Made by a program: the position numbers and the translations under genes
Shown here: one piece after another, positions 31,892 to 49,684 of the stretch
Layout: each line of letters starts with the position of its first letter
Numbering within the stretch: position 1 is the stretch's first letter
DNA from: Firmicutes bacterium UBA1393
Lineage (GTDB): Bacteria; Bacillota; DTU025
Direction: 5' to 3'
DNA: 59,151 nucleotides
Assembly: GCA_002305255.1 (NCBI GenBank)
Contig: DBQN01000083.1
Location: 28,642-87,792, forward strand
The notes under the pieces: generated by a model
Seen by the model: only the letters and a program-made list of their open reading frames with translations
Told to the model about the DNA's origin: nothing
Databases searched by the model: none

Positions 31892-34387
31892 TTATCCCAC
31901 CACGATGCTCAGGAGCTTGCCCTGGACAAACACGGTCTTCCTCACGGCCTTGCCGGCCACAGCAGCGGCCACCTTCTCACTCATCAGGGCAGCTGCGAGT
32001 GCATCCTGCTCTGTAGCGCTCGCAGGCAACACGATCCTGTCTCTCACCTTGCCGTTAACCTGAACCGCCACCTCAACGGTGCTGGCCTCCAGGGCACTCT
32101 CGTCCACCTCGGGCCACGCCACCAGATGCACACTGCCATCGTGGCCGGTGTCTGCCCACAGCTCCTCAGCGATGTGAGGCGCAAAGGGCGCCAGCATCAG
32201 TATCAGCATCTCGATGGCCCCTCCAATGACCTTCTTGCCGCTCTCAGTGGCAATGACGTCGTCCTTCAAGCCATACAGCGAGTTCACGAACTCCATGATG
32301 GCCGCAATGGCGGTGTTCAGTGCGTGCCTATCACTGATGTCAGACGTGACCTTCTTGAGGGCAGTGTGTGCCGCGCGCCTCACAGCCCGCTCGCCTTCGG
32401 TGGCGCCACTCATTGCGGCACCGCGCACTCCGTCTGAGAACACGCCGGCGTTCACGCATTGCGCCACCAGTCTCCATACGCGCTGCAAGAAGCGCCAGCA
32501 GCCTTCGACTCCCTCTTCACTCCACTCGAGATCCCTTTCGGGTGGCGACGCGAACAGCGTGAACAGCCTGGCCGTGTCGGCACCGAACCTCTCCACTATC
32601 TCGTCGGGGTCCACCGTGTTCCCCTTTGACTTAGACATCTTCGACCCGCCCAGCAGTACCATTCCCTGCGTGAGCAGGCGGGTGAAAGGCTCCTCCACTC
32701 CTATCAGCCCGATGTCGTGCAGGGCCATGGTGAAGAAGCGCGCGTACATCAGGTGCAGCACTGCGTGCTCCACCCCTCCGATGTACTGATCCACCGGAAG
32801 CCAGTAGTCGGCCTTGCGTCGCGACCATGGTTCGGTATCGGATCCCGGCGAAGTGTATCTCGTGAAATACCACGAGGAGCAGACGAAAGTGTCCATGGTG
32901 TCAGTCTCTCTGCGCGCCGGACCGCCGCACGTTGGACAGGTTGTGTTGACAAACTCAGGGCAGTCTAGCAGGGGAGATTGACCCGTTGGCATGAACTTCA
33001 CGCCCTTCGGCAGCATCACGGGAAGACTGCTCTCGGGAACGGGGACCTCTCCGCACTTGTCGCAGTAGATGATGGGGATCGGGGCACCCCAAAACCGCTG
33101 CCGGGAGATGAGCCAGTCACGCAGGCGGTAGTGAACCGCCCTCTTGCCGTAACCCTTCTGCTCCAAGAACTCGGCCATGGCGGGCCTGGCCTGTTCGGAG
33201 CGCATGCCGTCGAACTGCGCCGAGTTGACTTGCACACCGGCTCCGGTGAACGCCGCACTTGGCGCGTCAAGTGCTTCACCCTCAGTGCCTTCGGGCGCGA
33301 TTACGACCTTGATGGGCAGACCGTACTTCTTCGCCAGGTCAAAGTCGCGCTGGTCGTGGGCGGGCACTCCCATGACGGCGCCGGTGCCGTACTCCATCAG
33401 CACGTAGTTGCCGATCCACACCGGGATCTTCTCTCCGGTGGCCGGGTTCACAGCGTAGGAGCCTGTGAACATGCCGATCTTTTCGGCCTCTTCGCTCGTT
33501 CGCTCCATGTCTTCCTGCGAGATCACGTCAGCCACAAACGCCCTGAGTTCTGCCTCGTTGGGCTTGCCCGCGATCAGGCGGTCTACCATGGGGTGCTCCG
33601 GAGCAATGACGAGGTAGGTCACTCCCCAGAGCGTGTCATGGCGCGTCGTGAACACCGTAAGCGAACCGTCAACGTCGACAAGGCGGAACTCGATGTCCAT
33701 GCCCTCGCTCCGGCCTATCCAGTTGTGCTGCATGGTCTTCACATGTTCCGGCCAGCCGCTGAGCTTCTCCAGATTGTCGAGGAGCTTCTGGGCGTAGTCA
33801 GTGATCTTGAAGAACCACTGCTCCAGGTTGCGCTTGTTCACCGACGTATCACACCGCTCGCACTTGCCGTCCACTACCTGCTCATTGGCGAGCACCGTCA
33901 TGCACGATGGGCACCAGTTGACCTTCTGCGCCTTCTTGTAGGCCAGGCCATTCTTGTGCAGCTGCAGGAAGAGCCACTGCGTCCACCTGTAATACTCCGG
34001 ACTGCTCGATGACAACTCGCGATCCCAGTCATAGCTGTACCCGAGGCGCTTGAGCTGCTTGCGCATGTATGCGATGTTGCTGTCGGTCCATTCCGCCGGG
34101 TCCTTGCCATGCTTTATTGCAGCGTTCTCGGCAGGCAACCCGAAGGAATCCCAGCCCATCGGGTGGAGCACGTTCCAGCCGCACATCCGCTTGTATCTGG
34201 CCATCACGTCGCCGATCGAGTAGTTCCTGACATGACCCATGTGAATGCGCCCGGATGGGTAGGGCAGCATCTCAAGCAAGTAGAACTTGGGCCTTTCCGA
34301 CTCCTCGCTCACCTTATAGATGCCATCTACTTCCCAGTTGCTCTGCCACTTCTCTTCAGTCTCCTGAGCGAAGTACTTCTCCTGCAC
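31892..34387 (-). CDS. leuS: leucine--tRNA ligase
   Basis: Contains HMGHVRNY (HIGH) and KMSKSKGN (KMSKS) motifs. The start was moved to GTG 34387, giving MQEKYFAQE as in the canonical LeuS N-terminus, with GGGGGTG 6 nt upstream. Confidence 0.95.
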
Positions 34388-34428
34388 GAATAGCACCCCC
34401 GACTAAGTTCATCATTGCCCCGAAATAG

Positions 34429-34788
<360 letters not shown>

Positions 34789-38394: not shown

Positions 38395-39093
38395 TCAGCC
38401 GATCGCGGCGCCGCGGCTTGCCTCCGATCGCACCTCTTTCACCGCGGCGCGGTAGTTGAGGGCCCAGTGGACCATCCATGCGTAGACCAGCCCGTGCCGA
38501 GCCAAGACACCTAAGGCCGCCCCGGTTACCGTCGGCATGAGCATTGAGTAAGCCACCAATGCCCGCGGCGCTCCGGCCACCGCCATTGGCACGGCATGCA
38601 CTAGCCCGAAGACCACCGCCTGTAGCGGCACAGCCAGGGTCGGCCCTAAAACAACGGCAAGCCAACGCTGCAGGAGCCCTCTGAACAGGACCTCCTCTAG
38701 CAGCGCGCCTGAAGCGGTGAATGTCGCCGCCCTCATGCGGCGCAGCCGACGCGGGCTGTGCACCAGGGCCTGCCCTGCACCGCCGGCGCTCACCCCGGCA
38801 CGTTCCACCCACAGGCCGCACTCTCGCAGCAGCCCTGCTCGACAACGGTCGCCCGCCATCGACGCAACCACATAGACGGCGATTGCGCCCATCACCGCGC
38901 CAGCGTTCATCGGGCCGACAATGCCCAGTGCCACGACGGGGTCCCCTCGAGCCAGGGCCAACGCAACAAGTACTGACACAAGCAGCACGTCACCGATGTC
39001 GAACCCGGACGAGGCCCATCGCACCCATGTGTGCAGACGCACAAGCACGCTTATGGCCACTATAGATAGTACAACGACGGTTCCAGATCGCAT
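38395..39093 (-). CDS. CPBP-family intramembrane glutamic endopeptidase (CAAX protease/Abi family)
   Basis: Polytopic membrane protein with LEEVLFRGLLQ (EExxxR) and FGLVHA (FxxxH) motifs. The start was set to ATG 39093 (SD AAAGGA 9 nt upstream), which overlaps the rSAM stop by 34 nt. Confidence 0.8.
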   Translation of the reverse strand: MRSGTVVVLSIVAISVLVRLHTWVRWASSGFDIGDVLLVSVLVALALARGDPVVALGIVGPMNAGAVMGAIAVYVVASMAGDRCRAGLLRECGLWVERAGVSAGGAGQALVHSPRRLRRMRAATFTASGALLEEVLFRGLLQRWLAVVLGPTLAVPLQAVVFGLVHAVPMAVAGAPRALVAYSMLMPTVTGAALGVLARHGLVYAWMVHWALNYRAAVKEVRSEASRGAAIG

Positions 39094-40619
39094 CTGATAC
39101 GGTCCTTTGCTTTGGCGAAGTTCTCTTCCGCGCTGCACTCATCATCCCACGACCAGAGGATGCTCTGAAAGAACACGCGGTAACCGTTGCACCTTGGGTC
39201 CGGGCAGTTGATCCTGCCACTCGTCGAGAGGGCGGCGGCCCTGCAACCTCCCCCGCAGAAGTAGCGCACGGTGCACCGCCGGCATTGAGGCATCAGGTCG
39301 ACATCAGGAAGGGGCCACGGACTGAATACGCCCTGCTCCTCAAGGAGCCGCTTCGCCTTGTCGATGGTCAGCGGCAAGTGCGAATCCATTAGCAGGTGAC
39401 ACGGGTACACCAGTCTGCTTGCCGACACTGCCAACACCGCGCTTCCGGCCCCGCATCTGTCGCGGGGAACTACGAAGCCTACCTCATCAAGGCTGACGAT
39501 CTCCGGCGCTCCAGCCCGTCTCCAGCATGCCTCCATGTACTCTACCATTGAGAAGGCGAACCTATGCCCACTATCGACCTTGATGGGAGAGGCGGCGCCC
39601 GCACCGACGGGCTGAAACAGGCTGATGTGGCACTTCACTCCTAGAGACGAGCTGAACTCCCATATGGCCTCTGTATCATAAGTGTTCAACAGGCCAACTG
39701 TCGGCACCAACTCGACATTCGGCACACCTGCGCTGACAAGGTTTTGCACACCCTTTACAGCAGCGGCATGGGATCCAAGGCCTCGTATGCTGTCGTGCCG
39801 CTCTGGATCAGGCGACTCAATGCTCACCTGAACGTCACAGCCTAGTTTGGCAAGACGTTTCGCCAGGCGCCGGTCGATCCGTGTTCCGTTCGTTGCCAAC
39901 ACCACCCGCGTGCCGGGCACCGATACAATGCTGATCAGATCCAGCAGGTCTTCCCTCAGAGTGGGTTCACCGCCGGTGACCACGACTTCAGCCGGCTTGA
40001 TCGTTGCCACCCACTCAGCAGATGACCTTGCGTGCCATTTGTCAGCCTCCTCATGACAAAAATCGCGGTAGCAGGTTCTACACCTGAGATTGCAGCTCTC
40101 ACTCACAACAAAGTGGATCTTCTTCGGCCTGAATGGCCGGATTCCCTGACCTGCACACTGCGGGTCAACTGAGCCGTCGCCATGATCTGCTTGGATTTCA
40201 TCATCGCCGTAGTCGTCACAGCACTTCTCTCTGATCCTGCCCATCACGGCCTCTCTGATCCCTGCTGGCTGCACGTACTCCTCCAAGAGCTTCATCTCAC
40301 GCAGCCGCTCAAAGGTGTTCAGCATGTCGCTCACAGCCTCGCTGCCGTGTTCTGCCGCCAGCCTGTCGCACACGGTTCCTACGCTCACGCCCAGTGCGTC
40401 GCTGCAGTAGCGTCCCGCCTCCGAAGAGAGCCGCGCCCACGAGCCCTTCCCAGTGTTGATGATCAGCATGCCATCGTCATCCTGGATGAGCCGGGAACCG
40501 TTAGATAGCCTGTACACCGTTGATCTATCCGGCACTGGCACGGTATCACTCCTCCCCCAATACATGGCGAGGAACCAACCGCATTGCGATGGTTGGTTCC
40601 TCTCGAGGTCAACGCTCAT
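39060..40619 (-). CDS. radical SAM / SPASM-domain peptide-modifying enzyme with N-terminal PqqD-like RRE
   Basis: 519 aa with a CNLRCRTC (Cx3Cx2C) motif. The C-terminal Cys clusters (CGAGS..PCH, CRRCTVRYFCGGGCRAA, CPDPRC) are typical of SPASM. Residues about 35-125 (VYRLSNGSRLIQDDDGMLIINTGKGSWARLS...LLEE) look like a PqqD-type leader-recognition element. Confidence 0.85.
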   Translation of the reverse strand: MSVDLERNQPSQCGWFLAMYWGRSDTVPVPDRSTVYRLSNGSRLIQDDDGMLIINTGKGSWARLSSEAGRYCSDALGVSVGTVCDRLAAEHGSEAVSDMLNTFERLREMKLLEEYVQPAGIREAVMGRIREKCCDDYGDDEIQADHGDGSVDPQCAGQGIRPFRPKKIHFVVSESCNLRCRTCYRDFCHEEADKWHARSSAEWVATIKPAEVVVTGGEPTLREDLLDLISIVSVPGTRVVLATNGTRIDRRLAKRLAKLGCDVQVSIESPDPERHDSIRGLGSHAAAVKGVQNLVSAGVPNVELVPTVGLLNTYDTEAIWEFSSSLGVKCHISLFQPVGAGAASPIKVDSGHRFAFSMVEYMEACWRRAGAPEIVSLDEVGFVVPRDRCGAGSAVLAVSASRLVYPCHLLMDSHLPLTIDKAKRLLEEQGVFSPWPLPDVDLMPQCRRCTVRYFCGGGCRAAALSTSGRINCPDPRCNGYRVFFQSILWSWDDECSAEENFAKAKDRIRCDLEPSLYYL

Positions 40620-40717
40620 CCAATTGTGATGACATAGCCCCAGAACGGGAAGGAGACGCAGATGCCGTTGATGGACATGTTCGCTCTAGGGGCTCGGCCT
40701 GCCAGGATCCTGAACAC
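40616..40717 (-). CDS. candidate RiPP precursor peptide (33 aa; possibly 48 aa if it starts at ATG 40762)
   Basis: Not in the ORF track because it is shorter than 60 aa. SD GGAGGTGA lies 5 nt before GTG 40717 and the product is MFRILAGRAPRANMSINGICVSFPFWGYVITIG. The stop TGA overlaps the rSAM ATG (ATGA). The in-frame upstream ATG 40762 would add MICACRPHIIAEVIK but has no SD. Confidence 0.6.
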   Translation of the reverse strand: MFRILAGRAPRANMSINGICVSFPFWGYVITIG

Positions 40718-40789
40718 CTTGATCACCTCCGCAATGATGTGTGGCCTACACGCACAAATCATGGTCGCGCTTGCAGCCACATGTTACCA

Positions 40790-41188
40790 TCATTCGCGGC
40801 TTTCCTGCACCATCTGAATGGGCGAATTTGCTAGGTGAATCAAGGATTCTGACACGCCGATGAGGCCCGACGCAAAGGAATAGGTCACCGCCATGCTCCT
40901 GTTATTGACCCCCAGCTTACGGAAGATCGACCTGACGTGGGTCTTCACTGTGTTGACCGACACGAACAGCCTTGACGCGATGGCGGTATTGGACAGGCCC
41001 TGTGCCATCAACTCCATCACGCGCTGTTCACAACTGGACAGCTGAGGCACCGGCCCTTCGTGAGCCAGCAGCCTCGCCAGAGCCGCAACTGAGGACCGAC
41101 CGTCGCCCCTGGCCCCATCCCTGTTCATCGCAGCCAGAATGGGGCACATAATCGTTGCAGCGCTCTTGTCAGATGCTGATTCAGACAT
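40790..41188 (-). CDS. LuxR/GerE-family HTH transcriptional regulator
   Basis: 132 aa with the C-terminal region LSSCEQRVMELMAQGLSNTAIASRLFVSVNTVKTHVRSIFRKLGV, a classical GerE-type HTH. Confidence 0.85.
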   Translation of the reverse strand: MSESASDKSAATIMCPILAAMNRDGARGDGRSSVAALARLLAHEGPVPQLSSCEQRVMELMAQGLSNTAIASRLFVSVNTVKTHVRSIFRKLGVNNRSMAVTYSFASGLIGVSESLIHLANSPIQMVQESRE

Positions 41189-41221: not shown

Positions 41222-41250
41222 AGCATAACATTGAAGCCAGCCCCCGTCAA
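41222..41250 (-). promoter_or_regulatory. candidate promoter for the LuxR / peptide / rSAM / CPBP unit
   Basis: Minus strand reads TTGACG (41250..41245), a 17 nt spacer, then TATGCT (41227..41222). Confidence 0.45.
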
Positions 41251-41351: not shown

Positions 41352-43661
41352 CTACCCGACATCGCCACCCTCTGTTTGCGCCATGAGGATCACCTGCCTG
41401 GTGAGGCTGAGTCGCTTGAGAACCCGCCTGAATGCTGGTCGCTCTGCACCGCAAGGTGCCAGCACCACCAGGGGCCTGATCTTTGGCGTTCTCATCTCGG
41501 CTGTGGCAATGTTAACAGCTAGCATGCCCAACACCGCCAGATCACGATGGGGGATCCGTTCTGTGCTCGCCGCCGGTTCCGACACTGCGACCGCCACTTC
41601 CACCTGCTGACCGTCAATGGCACTGAGACCAATGCGGAGACACCTGTTCTCACACATGAACTGAAGCACCTCTGTGGCAGGCCCCTCAAGGCAGCTGCAG
41701 GCAGTCTCGACCATGTCGCGTACTGCCGCAGAAAGGCCGTCTCGGGCGAGCGTGAGGGCCGGCAACTCTGCGCGGAGGCGTTCGGCCTCTTCCTCTGCGG
41801 CAATCTGCCTGCTGGCGCACTCCCATACGTCCGTAGCCGCGACTTCCGCGCCCACTGTCTCCAATTGAGCCTCGATGAACCGCAGTTCATCTTGGAGCTG
41901 CTGCTGTTCTGTCAGCCTTGCCGCATGTTCAGCCGAGAGCACTTCAAGCTTCGAGCCGTCGACGACACGTGAGGTTAGGTCCGCTCTGATGGCTTCGGAT
42001 GCTAGGATCTCCTCTTGAAGCAGCTCCGGCATGATGCCCACGCTCCATCTCGACCTGCCTCCCAGTGCCCTGGAGACCTCAAGAGCCGCGCCCTCCAGAG
42101 CCTTCATGGCCCTGCCGCACTGCTCTGCCTGCGCGAGGAAGGCTTCGGGCGTACCGACGCCAACTGCATGGCATATCTCTGTGAGTCGCTCTCTTGCCCT
42201 GGTCATGGTCGTTCGCACATAGTCCACCTGATTCCTCAGCGACATGACTTGGCCGAGAGCTGCTGTCACCTCAGCGGCCCGCTCTTGTCGCTCAGCCTCG
42301 AGCTCGTCCTGGCGTGTCAGGGCTGCCAAGTAGTCCTCCAGATCGCGACCTCCTAGCAGCGTCCTGAGCTGCAACTGAGCCCAAGATTGCTGCCGTGTGA
42401 GATCCACCAGCTCGCTTTCGAGCCGCGTTCGCCTCTCGAATCCGGCCTGCACCTCCATGCCTTCCGCCAGGCCGAACACCGTGAGGAGTAGCCCTGCCGC
42501 GAGTCCCACGAGGAGTGCTGCCGGCAACGGGATGTGCAGCTCTCCCACAGTCACTGCGGCATCGGAGGGCACAAGCACGATGCCGATGAGGCATGCAATG
42601 GCCAGGGAGGCGCCAATGACGGTCATGGCCTTACCCAGTCTAAGGCTACTGCTGCGAGCAGGAAACGCCGTCACTTCGGCGGTGATGGCATCGATTCGAT
42701 GCTGCCGCTGCTCAATGCTGTGCGTCAGGCTGGCGGCCTGCACTGCCGCGCTTCTGTTGCAGCGGCGCGCATCTGCGGCTCCCAGTGCAGAGTCTACCCC
42801 CGTCAACGCCGCCTTGGCCGCGGCAAGTCGTGCCTGCGCCCTCGACTGCCGTGCCTCTGCGTCGATCGCCTGCTGCTCGGCATCGTTCAGCGTGGCCAGG
42901 AGAGCAGCGACCTCCTCGTCTACCTCCCAGCCCACGCGCGCGACCAGGTTGAGTAACGCCCCATCTGCCCCGGCACGCAGCTCCAGCTCCTCCGCTCTCT
43001 CCACAGCCCTCAGATCCGACGATGTCGCCGCATGATCCCTCTTCACATCGGCCGTGTAAGCGTCAAGATCTCTCAGTTCCGACCACGCCCTCATCAGGTC
43101 GTCGAACGCCCACAGCTTCTCCGATATGTAGCTCATACGCTCACGGATCCAGGCCGCGCGCCCGATGAGCTGCCTTTTCAGTCGCCGTGCCTCCTCGAGC
43201 CGATCTCTGTCGTGCTTGGCCGCGTCTGCCTCCGCCGTAGCGGCAACCAGGGCCTCAGCGCTCCGCTCGATGTTCGCAGCGGCAGCGGCGGCACGAGCAA
43301 CGTCTGGGCCGACCAGTCTCTCTGCAGGAATCCGCATCGTGAGCCCGTTGTGCGTATCGCACACGCTGTCGCAGTCTTCCAGAACGACGCAGTCCACCAC
43401 TGGCCGGGCCCCCGCCTCCGGCGCTCCGTCTCCCAGGCCGTCATACCGAATGAGCTCGCGCCCTCCATCCTCTCTTACCAGCGTCAGCTCTGCCCGGTAG
43501 GGAGGCCGGCCTGCCACACCATGGCCTTCCGCCATCAGCCGCATCGCGCTCACAAGGGCCTGCCAACGCGGGCCGGAATCGATCCTAATCTGGCTGAACT
43601 CTGGCCTGGGCGTCAGGTTCAGCGTTGGGCGGCCGTTTCTACCCCACACTGCGATCTTCAC
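41352..43661 (-). CDS. SbcC/YhaN-like long coiled-coil protein with degenerate ATPase motifs and a central TM hairpin
   Basis: 769 aa, Ala/Glu/Arg/Leu-rich and coiled-coil throughout. Two adjacent hydrophobic helices lie mid-protein (AMTVIGASLAIACLIGIVLV and LPAALLVGLAAGLLLTVFGLA). The start overlaps the phosphoesterase stop by 23 nt. No GxxxxGK[ST] motif is present at the N-terminus, and LVVLAPCG stands where Walker B hhhhDE is expected. Confidence 0.6.
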   Translation of the reverse strand: MKIAVWGRNGRPTLNLTPRPEFSQIRIDSGPRWQALVSAMRLMAEGHGVAGRPPYRAELTLVREDGGRELIRYDGLGDGAPEAGARPVVDCVVLEDCDSVCDTHNGLTMRIPAERLVGPDVARAAAAAANIERSAEALVAATAEADAAKHDRDRLEEARRLKRQLIGRAAWIRERMSYISEKLWAFDDLMRAWSELRDLDAYTADVKRDHAATSSDLRAVERAEELELRAGADGALLNLVARVGWEVDEEVAALLATLNDAEQQAIDAEARQSRAQARLAAAKAALTGVDSALGAADARRCNRSAAVQAASLTHSIEQRQHRIDAITAEVTAFPARSSSLRLGKAMTVIGASLAIACLIGIVLVPSDAAVTVGELHIPLPAALLVGLAAGLLLTVFGLAEGMEVQAGFERRTRLESELVDLTRQQSWAQLQLRTLLGGRDLEDYLAALTRQDELEAERQERAAEVTAALGQVMSLRNQVDYVRTTMTRARERLTEICHAVGVGTPEAFLAQAEQCGRAMKALEGAALEVSRALGGRSRWSVGIMPELLQEEILASEAIRADLTSRVVDGSKLEVLSAEHAARLTEQQQLQDELRFIEAQLETVGAEVAATDVWECASRQIAAEEEAERLRAELPALTLARDGLSAAVRDMVETACSCLEGPATEVLQFMCENRCLRIGLSAIDGQQVEVAVAVSEPAASTERIPHRDLAVLGMLAVNIATAEMRTPKIRPLVVLAPCGAERPAFRRVLKRLSLTRQVILMAQTEGGDVG

Positions 43662-44754
43662 GACGATCAGTGGACTTCACCTCCTCGAGGGCGGAAAAGG
43701 CGATGGCCAGGGCCTTTGTACGCAACCCACTGTCGGTTCCGATTCTTCTCGCCACAGCAGACTCCACACTGCCCCGGGGCGGCGCAGCTGCGGCAATGCG
43801 CGTGTTGTCGACCACGCTCAGGTGGAAGAAGCTCGACGCGAACTCCCTCTCGAGTCGCAGTGGCAGCCCCGATAGCGCCGGCGACAGCTCCCCCTCCAGC
43901 TGAACCATGAGGCAGTGCTCGCCATTGGCCAGGCCCGCTAGGCGGTGCCTGATGCTGTCGGCAGTCTTTCCTGTGACATCGATGACGATCACACGGTGTG
44001 ACCTTCCAGGAACGACCGTGCGCGACACTTCGACTCCGCTGTCTTCAATGGTGACTTTGAGCACGTGGCGTTCACCGCGGGTGGAGAAGTCATGGTGGGC
44101 AGGTGAGCCAGGGTACCAGCAGGTAGACGTGCCGGCTGAACAGTTCAGCACGGAGTGATAGTGCCCCAGAGCGAGGTAGGTCAGGCCCGACGCCGCGAGC
44201 TGGGCAGAAGTCACGGTGGCAAGGCCCCTCCGACCGACCGACCGACCGAGCGCCTCATCTTCAGTGGTCGCGTGCATCAGCCCGATGTGCACACCCGGCC
44301 CCTCATGCCGCAAGTTGCCAAGCACGGCGATGTCGGCGTTGCGGCCGGTGGTCCTGACACCCCATACACTCACCCCGGGGATGGGCTCTACGGCCGACCA
44401 CTCGTCTCCGGCGAAGAGGTGCACATTTGGCGCGGCCGCAAGTTCGAGCAGTGCCGCCATGCCGGCGTACTCCTCTGCCTCGCCCGGGACGCATACGACG
44501 GGGACTCCGGCGTCGCCCAGCCGAGCGAACCCCGCTGCCACGTGGGCCAGAGTAGAGTCTGACACACATCTTGCACAGATCAGATCGCCTGCAACCAGCA
44601 GGACGTCTACTCCGAACGACACGGCCTTGTCCACTATGAAGTCGAACGCCCGTATCAGTTCCGCCCTGCGTTCTCTCCGCGCCTCAAGGCCGTAGGCTGG
44701 GAGTGGATGATCAAGATGCAGGTCGGATATGTGCAACACGTGTATTGGCTTCAC
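43639..44754 (-). CDS. calcineurin-like metallophosphoesterase, SbcD/YhaO-type nuclease subunit
   Basis: The start was moved to GTG 44754 (SD GGAGGAA 6 nt upstream), giving MKPIHVLHISDLHLD. Further motifs are LLVAGDL and GHYH. Confidence 0.8.
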   Translation of the reverse strand: MKPIHVLHISDLHLDHPLPAYGLEARRERRAELIRAFDFIVDKAVSFGVDVLLVAGDLICARCVSDSTLAHVAAGFARLGDAGVPVVCVPGEAEEYAGMAALLELAAAPNVHLFAGDEWSAVEPIPGVSVWGVRTTGRNADIAVLGNLRHEGPGVHIGLMHATTEDEALGRSVGRRGLATVTSAQLAASGLTYLALGHYHSVLNCSAGTSTCWYPGSPAHHDFSTRGERHVLKVTIEDSGVEVSRTVVPGRSHRVIVIDVTGKTADSIRHRLAGLANGEHCLMVQLEGELSPALSGLPLRLEREFASSFFHLSVVDNTRIAAAAPPRGSVESAVARRIGTDSGLRTKALAIAFSALEEVKSTDRREDRSVG

Positions 44755-44877
44755 TGGATGTTCCTCCGCCGCGAAATCTGCCGACTGTTCACGATTTGCC
44801 CACAAAATGAAAAATGCGCCAGCTCAGTAGCTGACGCGAATCTATTCTGCGTGTCCGGCGTCTTCCCCTCCCCAGGG

Positions 44878-45876
44878 CTACGCGCCGTACCTAGCGAGAA
44901 CGAGGTCGATAGACTGCATCATGCTGCGACGAAGGCCTTCTGGCTTCAGTATCTCAGCCGATTCGCCGAAGGTCGCCACCCATGTACGGAACTCGTTCCA
45001 CCCAGGCATGATATCTCGATATATGACCGAGCCGTCGCCTTGAGGCGTGCGAGTTGCGTTCGGCCGATCAGCGGTGTCGGAGTACATCCTGGTCAACACG
45101 TTGTAGTCATCGGCGAACCTCACCACCACCTCTACCGGCTCCTCACTGCACTCCACGCCCCAGCACGCGGTAACGTGTGCGTCGACATCCTCATCGCACG
45201 GCGGTGTTATCTGGTGGGGCGAGGGCGCGAAGTTGACGATCCGCGACACTCGGTAGTGCCTGATCTCGCCATCTTCCCTGTATCCGTAGAGATACCACGC
45301 GCACGTTCTCCAATCGTACACGAGGGCAACCGGGCAGACATGCCGAACCGACTGGTCGCCATTGGCCTTCACATAGGTGATGACGAGCGGAGCGCGCTCT
45401 GCAAGGTAAGACTCCAGCTCAGCTATGCGCATCTCGTCCTGGCCCTCGCCGTAGATGGGACGCCCGGTGATCACAACGCGCCTCCCTCCGGCCTCGGTTC
45501 GCAGGTTCCGCCTGAGCCTTGCCCCCACTGCCTCACACTCACAGCTCGACTCCAGCATCTCCAGGAGCATCGTGGCCTCGCGGCGTGTCAGCGAGGTGAC
45601 CGGGAAAGCGAAGTCCCTGGAGGCGAGCGCCCATATCTCCTGCTCCGGCAGAAGCTGTGGCGAGTCACCGTCGAGGTCATCTGCCGAGCAGTACAGCGGT
45701 GCCCTGCCGTAGGTGCTGAGCGTGGTGAGATCAGCCCTGATCAGCTCGGGTGTGAACCCCGACTGCTCCGCCAGTGAAGCCAGGCTCATCCCGTCGGCGC
45801 CGGCAGCCAGAAGCAGATTGACCAGGCGAATCACCCGGCCGAACACCTCAGCCTTCAGCTCATCATCGCTCCTCAT
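44878..45876 (-). CDS. HTH-WYL-WCX transcriptional regulator (PafC-like partner)
   Basis: 332 aa with an N-terminal wHTH and a WYL-domain core (VRHVCPVALVYDWRTCAWYLYGY). It overlaps the upstream WYL gene by 14 nt. Confidence 0.8.
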   Translation of the reverse strand: MRSDDELKAEVFGRVIRLVNLLLAAGADGMSLASLAEQSGFTPELIRADLTTLSTYGRAPLYCSADDLDGDSPQLLPEQEIWALASRDFAFPVTSLTRREATMLLEMLESSCECEAVGARLRRNLRTEAGGRRVVITGRPIYGEGQDEMRIAELESYLAERAPLVITYVKANGDQSVRHVCPVALVYDWRTCAWYLYGYREDGEIRHYRVSRIVNFAPSPHQITPPCDEDVDAHVTACWGVECSEEPVEVVVRFADDYNVLTRMYSDTADRPNATRTPQGDGSVIYRDIMPGWNEFRTWVATFGESAEILKPEGLRRSMMQSIDLVLARYGA

Positions 45877-47107
45877 CGGCGTCCACCTGCCTCTCGTACA
45901 TCTGCTTCATCCGCTTCGCGCTGGAGATCAGCTCTTCACGCATGGTAGCAGGCTCTATGACCTCCGCTGAGCTGCCAAAAGACCTCAACCAGGCCCTGAA
46001 CTCAGGCTCGCCCAGAATCGTGTCGGTGTACTCCCACACACCTGGCTCAACCTGCCGCAACACCGCGCGCCTGCGATGGGCGGTTTCCGCCTTGACCCTG
46101 GAGATGACGTTGAACTCATCATAGAACCTCACGCGCACCGACACCGGATCGCCGCGGTACACGCCCCACTGCCCCTCGAGGTAGTCGTCAAGCTTGAACC
46201 CCTCAGGAGGCTCGAACCGTTCATCCGTCACTGCCATGCTCAGAATCCTGTCGGCCCTGAACAGCCTGACGTCTTGCGCCGTGCGGCAGCGGGCCACCAC
46301 ATACCACATATCGTGAACGGAGTAGTAAAGAACGCCAAGGGGCTCTATCACCCTGGGCCTCTTCACGCCCCGGGATCTTAAGCCCCTGTAGACTATCTCC
46401 ACCGTATGTTGTTCACACGCTGCCAGCTCCAGCACCTCGACTTTGCTCAAGAGAGATGAGCTGTTCTGCCTGGGCCTTCTGACCACGTGCCTTCTTCTTG
46501 AGACCAGGCTCACTCGGGTGAGATCAGGTGTAAGCCCGGCCATGAGCTTGCGACGTATGGACTCCGCTGCGGCCGGGTCGGCAAGGGCCTTCGGACTGGT
46601 GTCGAGGGCACGCATCACTGCCGCAAGCTGCGAGTATGGCAGCGTGAACCGGGGCATGAACGCTTCGGTCAACCCGTACACCGCCGAGTCGCCGGGCGCG
46701 CACCCCTGTTGCTGAATGTATCCCTCAAGCACCAGGAAACGGATGTCACGCCTCACGGTACGTTCGTCGACGCCAAACTCGGCGCTCTGGCTCAGCACGC
46801 CGTCAATGATCTGCTCTAGCGGGAGCGGCCCTTCACTGAGCAGACTCAGAATGGCCAGCCGCCGCATGGCCCACTCTGCCGCATGTAGCTGATAGTCGCC
46901 GCACTTCCAGATGATTCGCCCGGCGCTGATCGAGATGTCAACGCCAACCTTTCTGAGGCTCGCGACGTCTCGCATGAGAGTTCGCTCCGACACACCCAGG
47001 CATCGCACGGCATCAGCCGACGCGCAGCCATTCTGATCCTGCCTGGCCATGTCGAGAAGCGCCTGAAGTCGCCGTTTCTTGTCGGGCCGTTGCGGTATCT
47101 GACTCAA
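45863..47107 (-). CDS. HTH-WYL-WCX transcriptional regulator (PafB-like partner, duplicated N-terminal wHTH)
   Basis: 414 aa with two DeoR-like wHTH segments, then a WYL core (RVIEPLGVLYYSVHDMWYVVARC) and a C-terminal extension. Confidence 0.8.
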   Translation of the reverse strand: MSQIPQRPDKKRRLQALLDMARQDQNGCASADAVRCLGVSERTLMRDVASLRKVGVDISISAGRIIWKCGDYQLHAAEWAMRRLAILSLLSEGPLPLEQIIDGVLSQSAEFGVDERTVRRDIRFLVLEGYIQQQGCAPGDSAVYGLTEAFMPRFTLPYSQLAAVMRALDTSPKALADPAAAESIRRKLMAGLTPDLTRVSLVSRRRHVVRRPRQNSSSLLSKVEVLELAACEQHTVEIVYRGLRSRGVKRPRVIEPLGVLYYSVHDMWYVVARCRTAQDVRLFRADRILSMAVTDERFEPPEGFKLDDYLEGQWGVYRGDPVSVRVRFYDEFNVISRVKAETAHRRRAVLRQVEPGVWEYTDTILGEPEFRAWLRSFGSSAEVIEPATMREELISSAKRMKQMYERQVDADEER

Positions 47108-47135
47108 CTTCCATCACCGTGCGATGGATTCGACA

Positions 47136-47801
47136 TCAGGCGATATCATACCTCCACGGCTCGTGCTCGACCTTCTCCCTCAGTTTGCGCTTGCCGCGCG
47201 CCAGGGCGTTGTCGACGGCTTTCACCGACATCCCCATCTCCGCTGCGATCTGCTGGTATGTACCCCCCTCGCAATACACGCGCATCGCCCTGAACTCGAG
47301 GTCCGACAGGGCCGCTTCGGCGCACTTCCACAACTCACTCTTCGTCTCCTCGTCCATCGTCAGGCCAGAGGGATCCGGTGATGCGACATCGGCGATGGCA
47401 TCGATGGCGAGTGTGTCATCACCCCCGTCAGCATCTCGCCCAGAGACCGTGCCGAACAGCGGAACGACACACGCGGGCGGAACCTGCCTCGCCCTGAAGT
47501 AAGCCCTGATCACAGTTGCCAGACGACGCCGCACACACAGCTCGACAAAGCCATACAGCCCAGACTTGGCGGAATCCCAGTTCTTCACGGCCGCGAGAAA
47601 TCCCATGTCAGCCTCTTGCCTCAGATCCTCGGGGTCGAGCCAGCCGTAGCTTCTGCTGTAGGAGCGTGCCCACGATCGAAGCGCTCCTGAGTATCTCCGC
47701 ATCAGTTCCTCAAATGCCAGGTCTCGTTCATACTCGTCATCTGAATGCCTGTACACCAGGGCCAACTCCGCGTCACCAAGAAGCGCAAGGTTCTTCTCCA
47801 C
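47136..47801 (-). CDS. sigma-70 family sigma factor, SigH (sigma-30)-like
   Basis: 221 aa, GTG start with SD GGGAGGGTGA. Region 2 reads DLRQEADMGFLAAVKNWD. Region 4 (LSDLEFRAMRVYCEGGTYQQIAAEMGMSVKAVDNALARGKRKL) closely parallels my recollection of B. subtilis SigH region 4. Confidence 0.75.
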   Translation of the reverse strand: MEKNLALLGDAELALVYRHSDDEYERDLAFEELMRRYSGALRSWARSYSRSYGWLDPEDLRQEADMGFLAAVKNWDSAKSGLYGFVELCVRRRLATVIRAYFRARQVPPACVVPLFGTVSGRDADGGDDTLAIDAIADVASPDPSGLTMDEETKSELWKCAEAALSDLEFRAMRVYCEGGTYQQIAAEMGMSVKAVDNALARGKRKLREKVEHEPWRYDIA

Positions 47802-48039
47802 AGCCTCACCCTCCCGATGCAGATGTCGTCAGCGTCGACGCGAACAAATGTTACCACACACATCCGGCGCGGAACTGTCACGAACACGCTGTCGTCAGCT
47901 GGCGCCCCGCCGGCGCCGCCAGTGGCCAGGCAGCGCGGCGCGAACTGAACACCGCCGGCCCACGCCGCGGCTGCCCAGAACCTTCGCGTCTCGCGGCCTC
48001 GCCCCCAGGGGGATGAACCTGAGCATGGTACAGCACGAT

Positions 48040-48071
48040 ACAACGAAAGGGCCTGCCCCGCGGGGCAGACC
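48040..48071 (-). terminator. rho-independent terminator after the SCIFF maturase gene
   Basis: Minus strand reads GGUCUGCCCC-GC-GGGGCAGGCC (10 bp, one G-U pair), followed by CUUUCGUUGU. Confidence 0.65.
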
Positions 48072-48140
48072 CTCCATACCATGTTATGTTTCGCCCGCCG
48101 GCGCAACACTGCAGGGCGGCAGGGCGACAGGACTACATGA

Positions 48141-49565
48141 CTACAGGGCCATCAGCGCGAGCGCAGCCTCCAGACGCTTCTTGGTGATCGCGCATCCGAC
48201 GGCGTATGGCTCCGACAGCGTCCCCGACATCTCATGGGCGTTGGCGTGGCACCCTCCGGAGCACATGAACCTCGCCCAACACTGGGCGCACGCCGGCTTT
48301 GCGTAGATGTGTGCCTCCCCGAACTGCGCGCCTATCCCCGTATCCGTGATGCCGTCATTGACGTTCCCCATGTCAAAGCCAGGCCTTCCTACGAACTGGT
48401 GGCACGGATAGAGCCGTCCCTCAGGTGTCACTGCTGCATACTCCCTACCTGCCCCGCATCCCATGAGCCTCTTTGCCAGGCATGGCCCGTGAGCAACATC
48501 GAGGTCGAAATGGAAGAAGCGAAAACCGCGTCCGGCCCGTCTGCGGTTGGCCATCTCCTGCACCAGCCGGTCGTAGGCTGCGAACACCTGAGAAAGATCT
48601 TGCTCTCTGATGGAATAGGGCGACTGGGGCGAAGCCACCACAGGCTCGAAGGATATCGTCTCAAAGCCCATATCGGCCAGGAACAGCACGTCTTTGTCGA
48701 AGTCCAAATTGCGCCTCGTATACGTGCCCCGCACGTAGTACTCTCCGCCTCTGCGCGAGTTCACAAACTTCAGAGCATTCGCCGCCACCCGCGCGAAGGT
48801 TGGCCCGCCGTCAGCGCTGCGCCTCACGGCATCATGCACCCATGCACGCCCATCCAGGCTCAACACGACCGCGATGTTGTTGTCGTTAAGGAACTCACCC
48901 ACCTCATCGGTGAGCCCCAGTACGTTCGTTGTCAGGGTAAACTTCAGAGTCTTGCCTGAGCGCCGCTCAAGCTCCTGACCGTGGCTGACTATGCGCCGCA
49001 CCGCATCCATATTCATCAACGGTTCGCCGCCGAAGAAGTCCACCTCGAGATGGCCCACATGCCCGCTGGCCTTGAACAGCAGGTCCAGCGCAGCCATGCC
49101 CACTTCAGCCGGCATCAGCGCCCTGGCGCCACCGAATCCGCCTGTGCCCGCGAAGCAGTAGCCGCATCTCATGTCGCAGTCATGCGCCACATGCAGGCAC
49201 ATCGCCTTCAACACGCCGGGGCCCAGCTCGCCCACATCGGCATCCCGCTCGTCGGGGTACGAAAGCACGCCTTGGTCGATCAGCGTATCGAGATCTCGGA
49301 CTACCTCCTGCACCTGCCCGCCATCGAGCTCGACGCCGCCACCGGCACGGCTACCGCCATCCGCCCCTGCACCCATTGCCTCCAGAACCGCCCATGCCGC
49401 CTCGTCTATCGAGTGCAAGCTGCCAGACTGGACGTCCAAAAGCAAGCGGGCGCCCGCATCACCGAACCGGTGCCAGTTGCGCTGGATCCCGGCTCGCGAA
49501 GGACGCCCCCTCTTGAGACTGAGCTCTACGCCTACTTCTTGCACGCCTGGTTCCCAAGGGTGCAC
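48141..49565 (-). CDS. SCIFF peptide radical SAM maturase (thioether-forming, SPASM domain)
   Basis: Contains CDMRCGYC (Cx3Cx2C) and the C-terminal SPASM cysteines (CGAGREYAAVTPEGRLYPCH, CAQCWARFMCSGGCHA). It lies immediately downstream of a SCIFF peptide. The start is uncertain: the GTG at 49565 overlaps the peptide ORF by 34 nt, and no canonical start exists between the peptide stop and the conserved WHRF...LDV block. Confidence 0.85.
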   Translation of the reverse strand: MHPWEPGVQEVGVELSLKRGRPSRAGIQRNWHRFGDAGARLLLDVQSGSLHSIDEAAWAVLEAMGAGADGGSRAGGGVELDGGQVQEVVRDLDTLIDQGVLSYPDERDADVGELGPGVLKAMCLHVAHDCDMRCGYCFAGTGGFGGARALMPAEVGMAALDLLFKASGHVGHLEVDFFGGEPLMNMDAVRRIVSHGQELERRSGKTLKFTLTTNVLGLTDEVGEFLNDNNIAVVLSLDGRAWVHDAVRRSADGGPTFARVAANALKFVNSRRGGEYYVRGTYTRRNLDFDKDVLFLADMGFETISFEPVVASPQSPYSIREQDLSQVFAAYDRLVQEMANRRRAGRGFRFFHFDLDVAHGPCLAKRLMGCGAGREYAAVTPEGRLYPCHQFVGRPGFDMGNVNDGITDTGIGAQFGEAHIYAKPACAQCWARFMCSGGCHANAHEMSGTLSEPYAVGCAITKKRLEAALALMAL

Positions 49566-49684
49566 GAGGTCTTACATGCCGACTGACAGGAGGTCTGGCA
49601 CTCCCGGCAGCCGCCGCTTGACGCCGTGGCCTTGAGGTTTCCGACGGCGATGGTCCTCACGTGTACTGTGTTCTTCTCGTTCAT
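49532..49684 (-). CDS. SCIFF (six-cysteines-in-forty-five) ranthipeptide precursor
   Basis: Not in the ORF track (50 aa). SD GGAGG precedes ATG 49684 and the product is MNEKNTVHVRTIAVGNLKATASSGGCRECQTSCQSACKTSCTLGNQACKK. The block GGCxECQTSCQSACKTSCTxGNQxC is the family signature. Confidence 0.85.
   Translation of the reverse strand: MNEKNTVHVRTIAVGNLKATASSGGCRECQTSCQSACKTSCTLGNQACKK

Follow-up and report, generated by a model that had tools for sequence, protein, structure and literature searches.

The 59,151 nucleotides (nt) of contig DBQN01000083.1 analysed here, referred to as the window, come from Firmicutes bacterium UBA1393 (Bacillota, DTU025). On the minus strand they carry a cassette of five open reading frames (ORFs) encoding a SigH-like sigma factor (sigma), two WYL-domain regulators (WYL1 and WYL2), a metallophosphoesterase (MPE) and a coiled-coil protein (CC). 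The order sigma-WYL1-WYL2-MPE-CC recurs in at least 13 lineages with 35-75% protein identity, all from one uncultured clade of endospore-forming Bacillota, and is thus not a product of chance. It has the look of a small, so far undescribed regulatory circuit and not of an ordinary operon for DNA repair. Tentatively, and with somewhat less than even confidence, we propose that the WYL pair controls the sigma operon and that the sigma factor drives a catalytically dead MPE-CC pair, which would act non-catalytically on DNA at the membrane.

The sigma gene (47136-47801, minus strand) encodes a divergent SigH-family factor of 221 amino acids (aa). After a gap of 28 nt follows WYL1 (45863-47107, minus; 414 aa), the PafB-like partner, with two N-terminal winged helix-turn-helix (wHTH) domains preceding the WYL and WCX domains. 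WYL2 (44878-45876, minus; 332 aa) overlaps WYL1 by 14 nt and carries a PafC-like, sub-threshold helix-turn-helix (HTH), then WYL and WCX. MPE (43639-44754, minus), a YhaO/SbcF-type metallophosphoesterase with a degenerate motif III, lies 123 nt downstream of WYL2. Its start is a GTG common to the relatives; the longest MPE ORF would begin at 44805. CC (41352-43661, minus) overlaps MPE by 23 nt and encodes a 769-aa Rad50-like coiled-coil protein, YhaN/SbcE-derived and without ATPase motifs. The upstream boundary is marked by an intrinsic-terminator-like hairpin with a U-run after scfB (48040-48074, minus), in which a GC-rich 12 bp stem is followed by UUUCGUUGU; the 116-nt stretch that holds it has a folding z of -3.0. 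The downstream boundary is marked by a σA-like promoter (41222-41250, minus; TTGACG-17-TATGCT with TG) of the next gene, the GerE/LuxR regulator of a cluster resembling those for ribosomally synthesized and post-translationally modified peptides (RiPPs). An earlier note on this DNA had described five genes on one strand with these gaps and overlaps, an upstream terminator and a promoter of the next gene downstream; the ORF coordinates and both boundary elements agree with that description.

Relatives of the cassette were recovered by alignment-based genome scans and contig look-ups, and the lineages found are named by L-numbers. The five-gene order is present in L001/L009 (DTU025), L007, L010-L014, L015, L016 together with L118 (UBA10085), L017 (UBA5389), L019, L104, L105 and L106. 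The neighbourhood comparison thus bears out, within one clade, the gene order singled out in the earlier note. A word-indexed protein search returned three clusters for sigma, one of them the window's own, and only three for CC. Nine more clade loci were found in a genome scan with sigma, and a second WYL1 scan with a broader alignment added one new lineage only. A scan of GTDB genomes with single-sequence patterns of sigma gave no match. On the upstream side, all lineages have the same flank, with the SCIFF peptide, the ScfB maturase that belongs to it and three M42 peptidases. Downstream, most lineages have a PALP/amidohydrolase/XdhC cluster, while in the window lineage, L001 and L014 the RiPP-like cluster takes its place, some 2 kb further along in the case of L014. 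In the window, this flank comprises the GerE regulator, a small peptide, a radical-SAM/SPASM enzyme, a CPBP protease and obg. As the downstream flank varies between lineages, the cassette outlasts a swap of its downstream neighbour. The five cassette proteins are 28-54% identical, compared with 65-79% for the M42 peptidases and ScfB; the module evolves much faster than its flanks.

Both WYL proteins carry HTH, WYL and WCX domains. WYL1 matches HTH_11, HTH_DeoR, WYL and WCX in Pfam, and WYL2 matches WYL and WCX. HTH_PafC stays below the Pfam cut-off of 32 in both, with 23.6 bits for WYL2 and 17.9 bits for WYL1. The best solved relatives of the pair are PafC/PafB of the RNA polymerase complex 7p5x, the fused PafBC 6sj9 and DriD, with E-values of 1e-4 to 1e-6 (1e-5 to 1e-6 for WYL1 against PafC/PafB of 7p5x and DriD). 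In L105, WYL1 and WYL2 are fused into a single 797-aa ORF with two WYL domains and two WCX domains, which a linker about 45 aa long connects. PafBC of Arthrobacter is likewise a natural fusion, and the L105 ORF is indirect evidence for the prediction that WYL1 and WYL2 form a PafBC-like heterodimer. A resemblance to the overlapping pafB-pafC pair had been proposed before and is upheld by the 14 nt overlap, the shared domain set and the fusion in one lineage. The pair is PafBC-like in architecture. It is not a PafBC orthologue, because it has no pafA link, is non-actinobacterial and stays below threshold for HTH_PafC.

Outside the clade, WYL1-WYL2 pairs stand alone in L018, L020, L021 and L116. 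In two of these outliers (L116 178-3621 and L020 5677-9099), which lack sigma, MPE and CC, genes for an unknown protein (227-250 aa) and for a methylpurine DNA glycosylase (MPG) come after the pair. As these two pairs adjoin MPG, the WYL-pair family is linked to DNA repair.

The promoter of the sigma-WYL1-WYL2 unit is located at 47848-47881 (minus). It contains an extended -10 element (TGGTAACAT, 47848-47856; TGnTAcnAT), the element GYGCCGGAYC at about -29 to -20 (GCGCCGGAT, 47862-47870) and GTGACA at -40 to -35 (47876-47881); there is no -35 hexamer at 17 nt. The layout is kept in 11 of 12 lineages, and the pattern GYGCCGGA-N8-10-TAMYAT has a chance expectation of 0.005 per window. Hybrid promoters of PafBC combine a -10 with a -26 element and lack a -35 (PMC8635444). 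The sigma promoter, as read from its motifs, resembles this PafBC-dependent layout. The similarity is in the layout alone; the RecA-NDp sequence itself is absent.

Several further features of this intergenic region were observed. A 5' hairpin after the sigma promoter is strong in the relatives and absent in the window, and is for that reason not counted as part of the window's feature. The site CGAACAAATGTTAC (47841-47854, plus strand) is one mismatch away from CGAACRNRYGTTYC, the Bacillus LexA (Cheo) box consensus, and overlaps both the -10 of the sigma promoter and its start site; about 0.8 such sites per window are expected by chance. The relatives lack this LexA-like site and have the 5' hairpin there instead. 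The scfB-sigma intergenic region is 339 nt long in the window versus about 80-190 nt in the relatives. An extra GC-rich stretch of about 160 nt (47882-48039, minus) lies between the scfB terminator and the sigma promoter.

MPE matches Pfam Metallophos and is SbcD/Mre11-like, scoring below the curated SbcD cut-off (TIGR00619, 41.7 vs 77.65). Of the metallophosphoesterase motifs DxH, GD, GNH(D/E), H and GHxH, motifs I, II, IV and V are retained. Motif III reads VPGEAEE in the window instead of GNHD, and every clade member has GE(A/D/S)(E/D)E at this position; in the profile alignment, PGeae stands opposite PGNHD of the Thermotoga maritima SbcD/Mre11. Among 15 aligned outgroup MPEs, 14 have GNHD and one has GTHD, so the loss of motif III is confined to the clade. 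Outside the clade, YhaO-type MPEs with intact motifs adjoin AAA_27/YhaN ATPases. In the two outgroup loci with a readable neighbour (L099 and L101), the MPE gene overlaps that of the ATPase, which has intact Walker A and B motifs as well as central hydrophobic segments; the L099 partner matches Pfam AAA_27, AAA_23 and SMC_N.

CC has no match in Pfam, NCBIfam or PADLOC, and its remote members P0070 and P0072 likewise have none in Pfam. The family is small: an exhaustive HMMER search of 1.84 billion proteins found only 12 representative clusters. The C-terminus matches the C-lobe of Pyrococcus furiosus Rad50 (E 2e-5). Compared with that protein, CC lacks LSGG and has PLVVLAP in place of the Walker B motif LLILDEP and LMAQ in place of VSHD, the H-loop histidine being lost. 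At the N-terminus, SGPRWQALVS is found where the outgroup partners have GPNE(V/A)GKS, so that Walker A is lost as well. No P-loop was found in the aligned clade members or in the three most remote members read (P0069, P0070 and P0072), and an exhaustive profile search found no P-loop-bearing intermediates. Comparison of the CC profile with single YhaN-type partners by hhalign gave weak C-terminal matches only (E 0.003-0.006).

The coiled coil carries two hydrophobic helices (aa 342-402; 42456-42638, minus) at its apex. They form a putative membrane hairpin that has hydropathy peaks of 2.4-2.6 and is kept in the clade. An AlphaFold 2 model of CC, built from a three-sequence alignment, places helices at 338-363 and 379-436 and shows confident long coiled coils and a β-β-α-β-β N-terminus. 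Model, hydropathy and the Rad50 C-lobe match together give an architecture of head, long coiled coil, central hydrophobic domain, coiled coil and head. The hairpin matches a hydrophobic central domain that has been described for SbcE/YhaN, and SbcE and SbcF act in double-strand break repair and transformation (PMC2811018). By these sequence comparisons, MPE and CC are descended from a YhaO/YhaN (SbcF/SbcE) pair. The earlier note had made this connection, and it is strengthened by the YhaO-type MPEs with AAA_27 partners as nearest relatives and by the Rad50 C-lobe match. Its description of CC as a dead ATPase and membrane coiled-coil protein likewise stands, given the loss of Walker A, LSGG, the Walker B acids and the H-loop and the retention of the hydrophobic hairpin. 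Its assignment of MPE as a nuclease needs correction, the catalytic Asn-His of motif III being lost. Because this loss in MPE comes in addition to that of the ATPase motifs in CC, the pair is probably not an active nuclease/ATPase.

The gap between WYL2 and MPE contains a σH-type promoter (44842-44871, minus), GGAGGGGAA-N-GCAGAATAG, with AGGGAA-N15-GAAY. σH promoters have a spacing of 11-12 nt. In all 12 lineages in which the gap was read, AGG(G)AA with GAA 21-22 nt downstream is found right after the WYL2 stop codon, even though the gap can be as short as 73 nt or as long as about 430 nt. Its sequence agrees with RNAGGAWWW / RNNGAATWW, the σH consensus (PMC8510167). No further σH-type promoters scoring above shuffled sequences were found in the window in a position weight matrix scan. 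A LexA box was looked for at the MPE promoter and not found; the statement of the earlier note that yhaO-yhaN of Bacillus subtilis belong to the SOS regulon is correct, yhaONM being in the LexA regulon (PMC2731908). Directly downstream of the σH-type -10, a 9 bp hairpin is followed by AUUUUUCAUUUU (44804-44837, minus). According to the terminator scan and the fold, it is a partial terminator/attenuator or a 5' stem-loop, and a hairpin with a U-run at this place is also found in L001, L007 and L104.

Metatranscriptome contigs cover all five cassette genes, and one of them (44654-44896) reads through the hairpin in the WYL2-MPE gap. Because the gap holds a σH-type promoter that is conserved, together with a hairpin and its T-run, and is crossed by a contig, the cassette is regarded as two units with partial read-through and not as one simple operon. 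Within the first unit, contigs from three independent runs end at 47103-47108, no more than 5 nt away from the start codon of WYL1 (47107). Coverage of the cassette is best in the 5' half of this gene. The contig ends may represent an internal 5' end, a processing site or an assembly break caused by strain variation.

A second σH-type promoter was observed outside the window. In L010 (15120-15144), L011 (16023-16047), L013 (10086-10110), L017 (15942-15966), L105 and L106, the near-perfect sequence AGGGAATCGAGNTGAYRCGTTGAAT lies in the gap between CC and the PALP cluster, 9 nt after the CC stop codon and ahead of the PALP operon. This cluster encodes a PALP enzyme, an amidohydrolase, a 2Fe-2S protein, a MobA-like protein and XdhC. 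The PALP operon is a possible further target of the cassette sigma factor.

The same data allow a reading in which three unrelated units, namely sigma, the WYL pair and a decaying yhaO/yhaN remnant, are neighbours by chance and the motif losses reflect ongoing pseudogenisation. The three units are indeed separate outside the clade, the catalytic motifs are gone and expression in the metatranscriptomes is low. However, at least 13 lineages retain intact, full-length ORFs even where identity falls to 28%, and non-catalytic positions are conserved. The replacement motif GE(A/D/S)(E/D)E and the hydrophobic hairpin are conserved, as is the promoter ahead of MPE-CC, and the MPE/CC overlap is kept. 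Decay of MPE and CC is unlikely because of the intact ORFs, the conserved replacement motif and the conserved promoter, and we consider this reading as a whole very unlikely.

A role in anti-phage defence, a possibility raised in the earlier note, was examined by a PADLOC check; a WYL pair similar to BrxR or CapW would then control an SMC-like and nuclease effector pair. SMC-like and nuclease pairs occur in several defence systems, and the cassette proteins evolve fast. The WYL proteins match PADLOC models, which are generic WYL models only. MPE and CC, in contrast, have no match in PADLOC-DB 2.0, and PHROGs gave no strong match. In every lineage, housekeeping genes enclose the cassette at an unchanged chromosomal position. 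Its G+C content matches the surroundings and no integrase or mobile-element genes are found, and both putative effectors lack their catalytic residues. With the effectors unmatched and the position fixed, a defence role is unlikely, and as an explanation of the entire cassette we give it hardly any credence.

The sigma protein matches Pfam Sigma70_r2 and r4_2. Its five best NCBIfam matches are all SigH-type models (E 1e-22 to 1e-26), in line with the earlier label of a SigH-like factor, with 86-94 bits against cut-offs of 208-295. It thus stays below the curated equivalog cut-offs of TIGR02859 (93.6 bits vs 208) and NF006148 (91.9 vs 294.8). Identity to the SigH proteins of Lachnospiraceae, an Oscillospiraceae-like group and Metabacillus is 32-35%. 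Judging by these matches, sigma is a divergent member of the SigH family. Its gene lies between scfB and WYL1 in all lineages and not at the cysS-mrnC-rlmB-sigH-(rpmG-secE-nusG) locus; the canonical cysS-mrnC-rlmB-sigH context is seen in L030.

The chief rival of the proposed circuit takes sigma to be the clade's one ordinary sporulation/transition-state SigH, which moved away from the cysS-nusG region and adjoins the WYL pair by a historical accident kept by synteny. MPE-CC and the PALP operon would then be two of many members of the SigH regulon, and the WYL pair would be an independent DNA-damage regulator. Since spoIIP, gpr and a gerA-type operon lie in the window, which also has comEA and comEC, the host is an endospore former, in which a SigH is expected. 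SigH models are the best sigma matches, relocated and fast-evolving σH-like genes are known (PMC3364868) and the flanks of the cassette are syntenic. A σH-type promoter is also found ahead of an unrelated metabolic operon. Between Clostridia families, the SigH proteins found in canonical context share only 36-46% identity, and some of them, with 160 bits, do not reach the NCBIfam cut-off. No second SigH-like locus of the clade genomes was found among the best 80 of 251 matches, a scan whose patterns were built from the cassette sigma and which therefore cannot show absence.

Other properties point to a dedicated paralogue. Clade sigmas reach 88-115 bits with the SigH models, well under the canonical-context SigH proteins tested (160 in the Oscillospiraceae-like group and 209-222 in Lachnospiraceae) and the Metabacillus copy (347). 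The KHxPLN segment after region 2, kept in canonical SigH from Bacilli to Clostridia (KKHGPLN, GKHAPLN or QKHGPLN), is lost, and RARQVPPA or RLKNCPPA is found instead. Within the clade, sigma is only 35-50% identical, compared with 63-71% for SigH within Lachnospiraceae. It is joined tightly to WYL1 by a gap of 28 nt, lies outside the cysS-nusG region and is preceded by the promoter of PafBC-like layout. On both sides taken together, sigma may be either a dedicated paralogue, as the earlier note suggested, or the clade's only SigH; the rival explanation as a whole we regard as real but rather unlikely. As a separate observation, the Metabacillus SigH copy of 347 bits (L053 and L069, 7968-8615) adjoins an ORF that resembles an ArsR-type regulator in sequence. 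On the L069 chromosome, it is far away from where sigH usually lies, and it looks like a SigH paralogue in this Bacillaceae genus.

According to the circuit that we propose, the cassette would be a chromosomally fixed, lineage-specific regulatory device of two linked transcription units. The first would encode sigma and a PafBC-like heterodimeric WYL regulator, in which WYL1 is probably the DNA-reading partner and WYL2 probably the one in contact with RNA polymerase. The WYL pair is predicted to bind the -29 to -20 element and to control its own operon together with the sigma gene. PafBC is said to be activated when single-stranded DNA (ssDNA) binds to its WYL domain, and by analogy the WYL pair may respond to a nucleic-acid ligand such as ssDNA. 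The second unit would encode a membrane-anchored SbcF/SbcE derivative, started at the σH-type promoter and presumably transcribed by the sigma factor of the first. In most relatives, the same sigma factor would also transcribe the next operon, which has the same promoter type. The dead Mre11/Rad50-like pair could serve as a non-catalytic, membrane-tethered DNA-binding scaffold or sensor rather than as a nuclease, possibly in the context of DNA uptake, chromosome handling at sporulation or damage. In this proposal, we count as shown which genes are present, that their order is conserved, that the WYL genes are fused in one lineage, that motifs have been lost, that the two promoters have their motifs and that there is transcription in situ; which factor binds which promoter, the ligand and the role of the dead pair are predictions.

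A number of points weigh against this proposal. The flanking genes are syntenic too, namely SCIFF, scfB and the three M42 peptidases on the upstream side and, in most lineages, the PALP cluster on the downstream side. The conserved order may therefore be plain clade synteny and thus weak evidence of function. This is the main weakness of any claim of a module. All lineages come from one clade with no independent distant five-gene set found, and WYL pairs and YhaO/YhaN pairs exist apart from each other elsewhere. The -26-like element of the sigma promoter differs from the mycobacterial sequence and is absent in L001. The σH-type motif occurs once in the window where 0.6 occurrences are expected by chance, so that only its conservation gives it weight, and a canonical SigH encoded elsewhere in the genome could be its reader. 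The RNA data are sparse contigs that may contain DNA, and the CC model has low confidence in its heads, where the predicted local distance difference test (pLDDT) score is below 50.

In a more integrated version of the circuit, which was also considered, the WYL heterodimer would serve the co-encoded SigH-like sigma factor, rather than σA, as its dedicated adaptor. With WYL2 docked on region 4 of the cassette sigma and WYL1 reading the DNA, the three co-evolving proteins would form one ligand-gated device for transcription initiation. The dead MPE-CC pair would sense or tether a DNA end or ssDNA at the membrane, for instance at a DNA-uptake site or the sporulation septum, and feed back to the WYL domains. 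We consider this version improbable.

The host is an uncultured member of the Bacillota from sludge and anaerobic digesters, and the window has a G+C content of about 62%. A protein of 'Firmicutes bacterium ADurb.Bin506' shares 99% identity with MPE, and the places of origin of the runs fit this source. The RiPP-like cluster downstream of the cassette (38395-41188, minus) comprises the GerE/LuxR regulator (40790-41188), a radical-SAM/SPASM maturase (39060-40619) and a CPBP/Rce1-like protease (38395-39138). Its small peptide ORF (about 40616-40717), which ends in NGICVSFPFWGYVITIG, is kept in L001 and L012. Upstream of the cassette, the SCIFF precursor (49532-49684, minus; 50 aa, six Cys) precedes the maturase gene scfB (48141-49565), and the precursor lies in the stretch with the strongest representation in all four metatranscriptome runs. 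Elsewhere in the window, leuS (31892-34396) has a T-box leader (34452-34771, minus), within which both ARAGORN and Rfam call a tRNA-Ala(GGC) at 34518-34593 (64 bits). The tRNA-like element thus lies within a T-box leader of another amino-acid specificity.

Among known systems, the cassette sigma compares best with SigH and the σH-like factors of Firmicutes, such as SigH of B. subtilis, staphylococci and Lactobacillus sakei, and ComX. SigH models are its best match, the similarity in regions 2 and 4 is clear and a promoter resembling the σH consensus adjoins the gene. In contrast to these factors, it scores far below the SigH cut-offs, lies outside the cysS-nusG region, lacks KHxPLN and is joined to a WYL pair. 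A search of the literature gave no account of a sigma factor and a WYL pair joined in this way.

The WYL pair shares with PafBC the two adjacent overlapping genes, each encoding HTH, WYL and WCX domains, and a natural fusion in one lineage (L105), as in Arthrobacter. PafBC proteins are its best solved relatives, the linked promoter has a -10 and a conserved -26-region element without a -35, and the neighbours are DNA-repair-type genes. It differs in occurring in Bacillota without a link to pafA or the proteasome, its neighbours being scfB, sigma and MPE. The similarity is weak (E 1e-4 to 1e-6), about the same as to DriD, and HTH_PafC is sub-threshold. Furthermore, WYL1 has an extra N-terminal wHTH, the promoter element GYGCCGGAYC is unlike the mycobacterial motif and the pair is co-encoded with a sigma factor. 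To our knowledge, WYL heterodimers of the PafBC type have been worked out in Actinobacteria only. If the proposed circuit is correct, the pair would be a Bacillota counterpart of PafBC wired to an alternative sigma factor, in a so far undescribed two-step cascade from the WYL pair to a σH-like sigma factor and its targets.

MPE and CC are most similar to SbcF/SbcE (YhaO/YhaN) and more distantly to SbcCD and Mre11/Rad50. As in these systems, a metallophosphoesterase gene overlaps the gene of a long coiled-coil, SMC-like protein. The coiled coil holds a central hydrophobic domain, similarity to the Rad50 C-lobe is detectable, and the nearest relatives of the cassette MPE are YhaO-type enzymes paired with AAA_27 ATPases. 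In contrast to SbcF/SbcE, the cassette MPE is without the motif III Asn-His, and CC is without Walker A, the signature, the Walker B acids and the H-loop. The cassette has neither yhaM nor a LexA box at the MPE promoter, control being apparently exerted by a σH-type promoter. MPE and CC would therefore seem to be a natural pair of the Mre11/Rad50 family minus both catalytic activities, yet kept under selection with a membrane anchor, which bears on the role of SbcE/SbcF (YhaN/YhaO) in Gram-positive bacteria.

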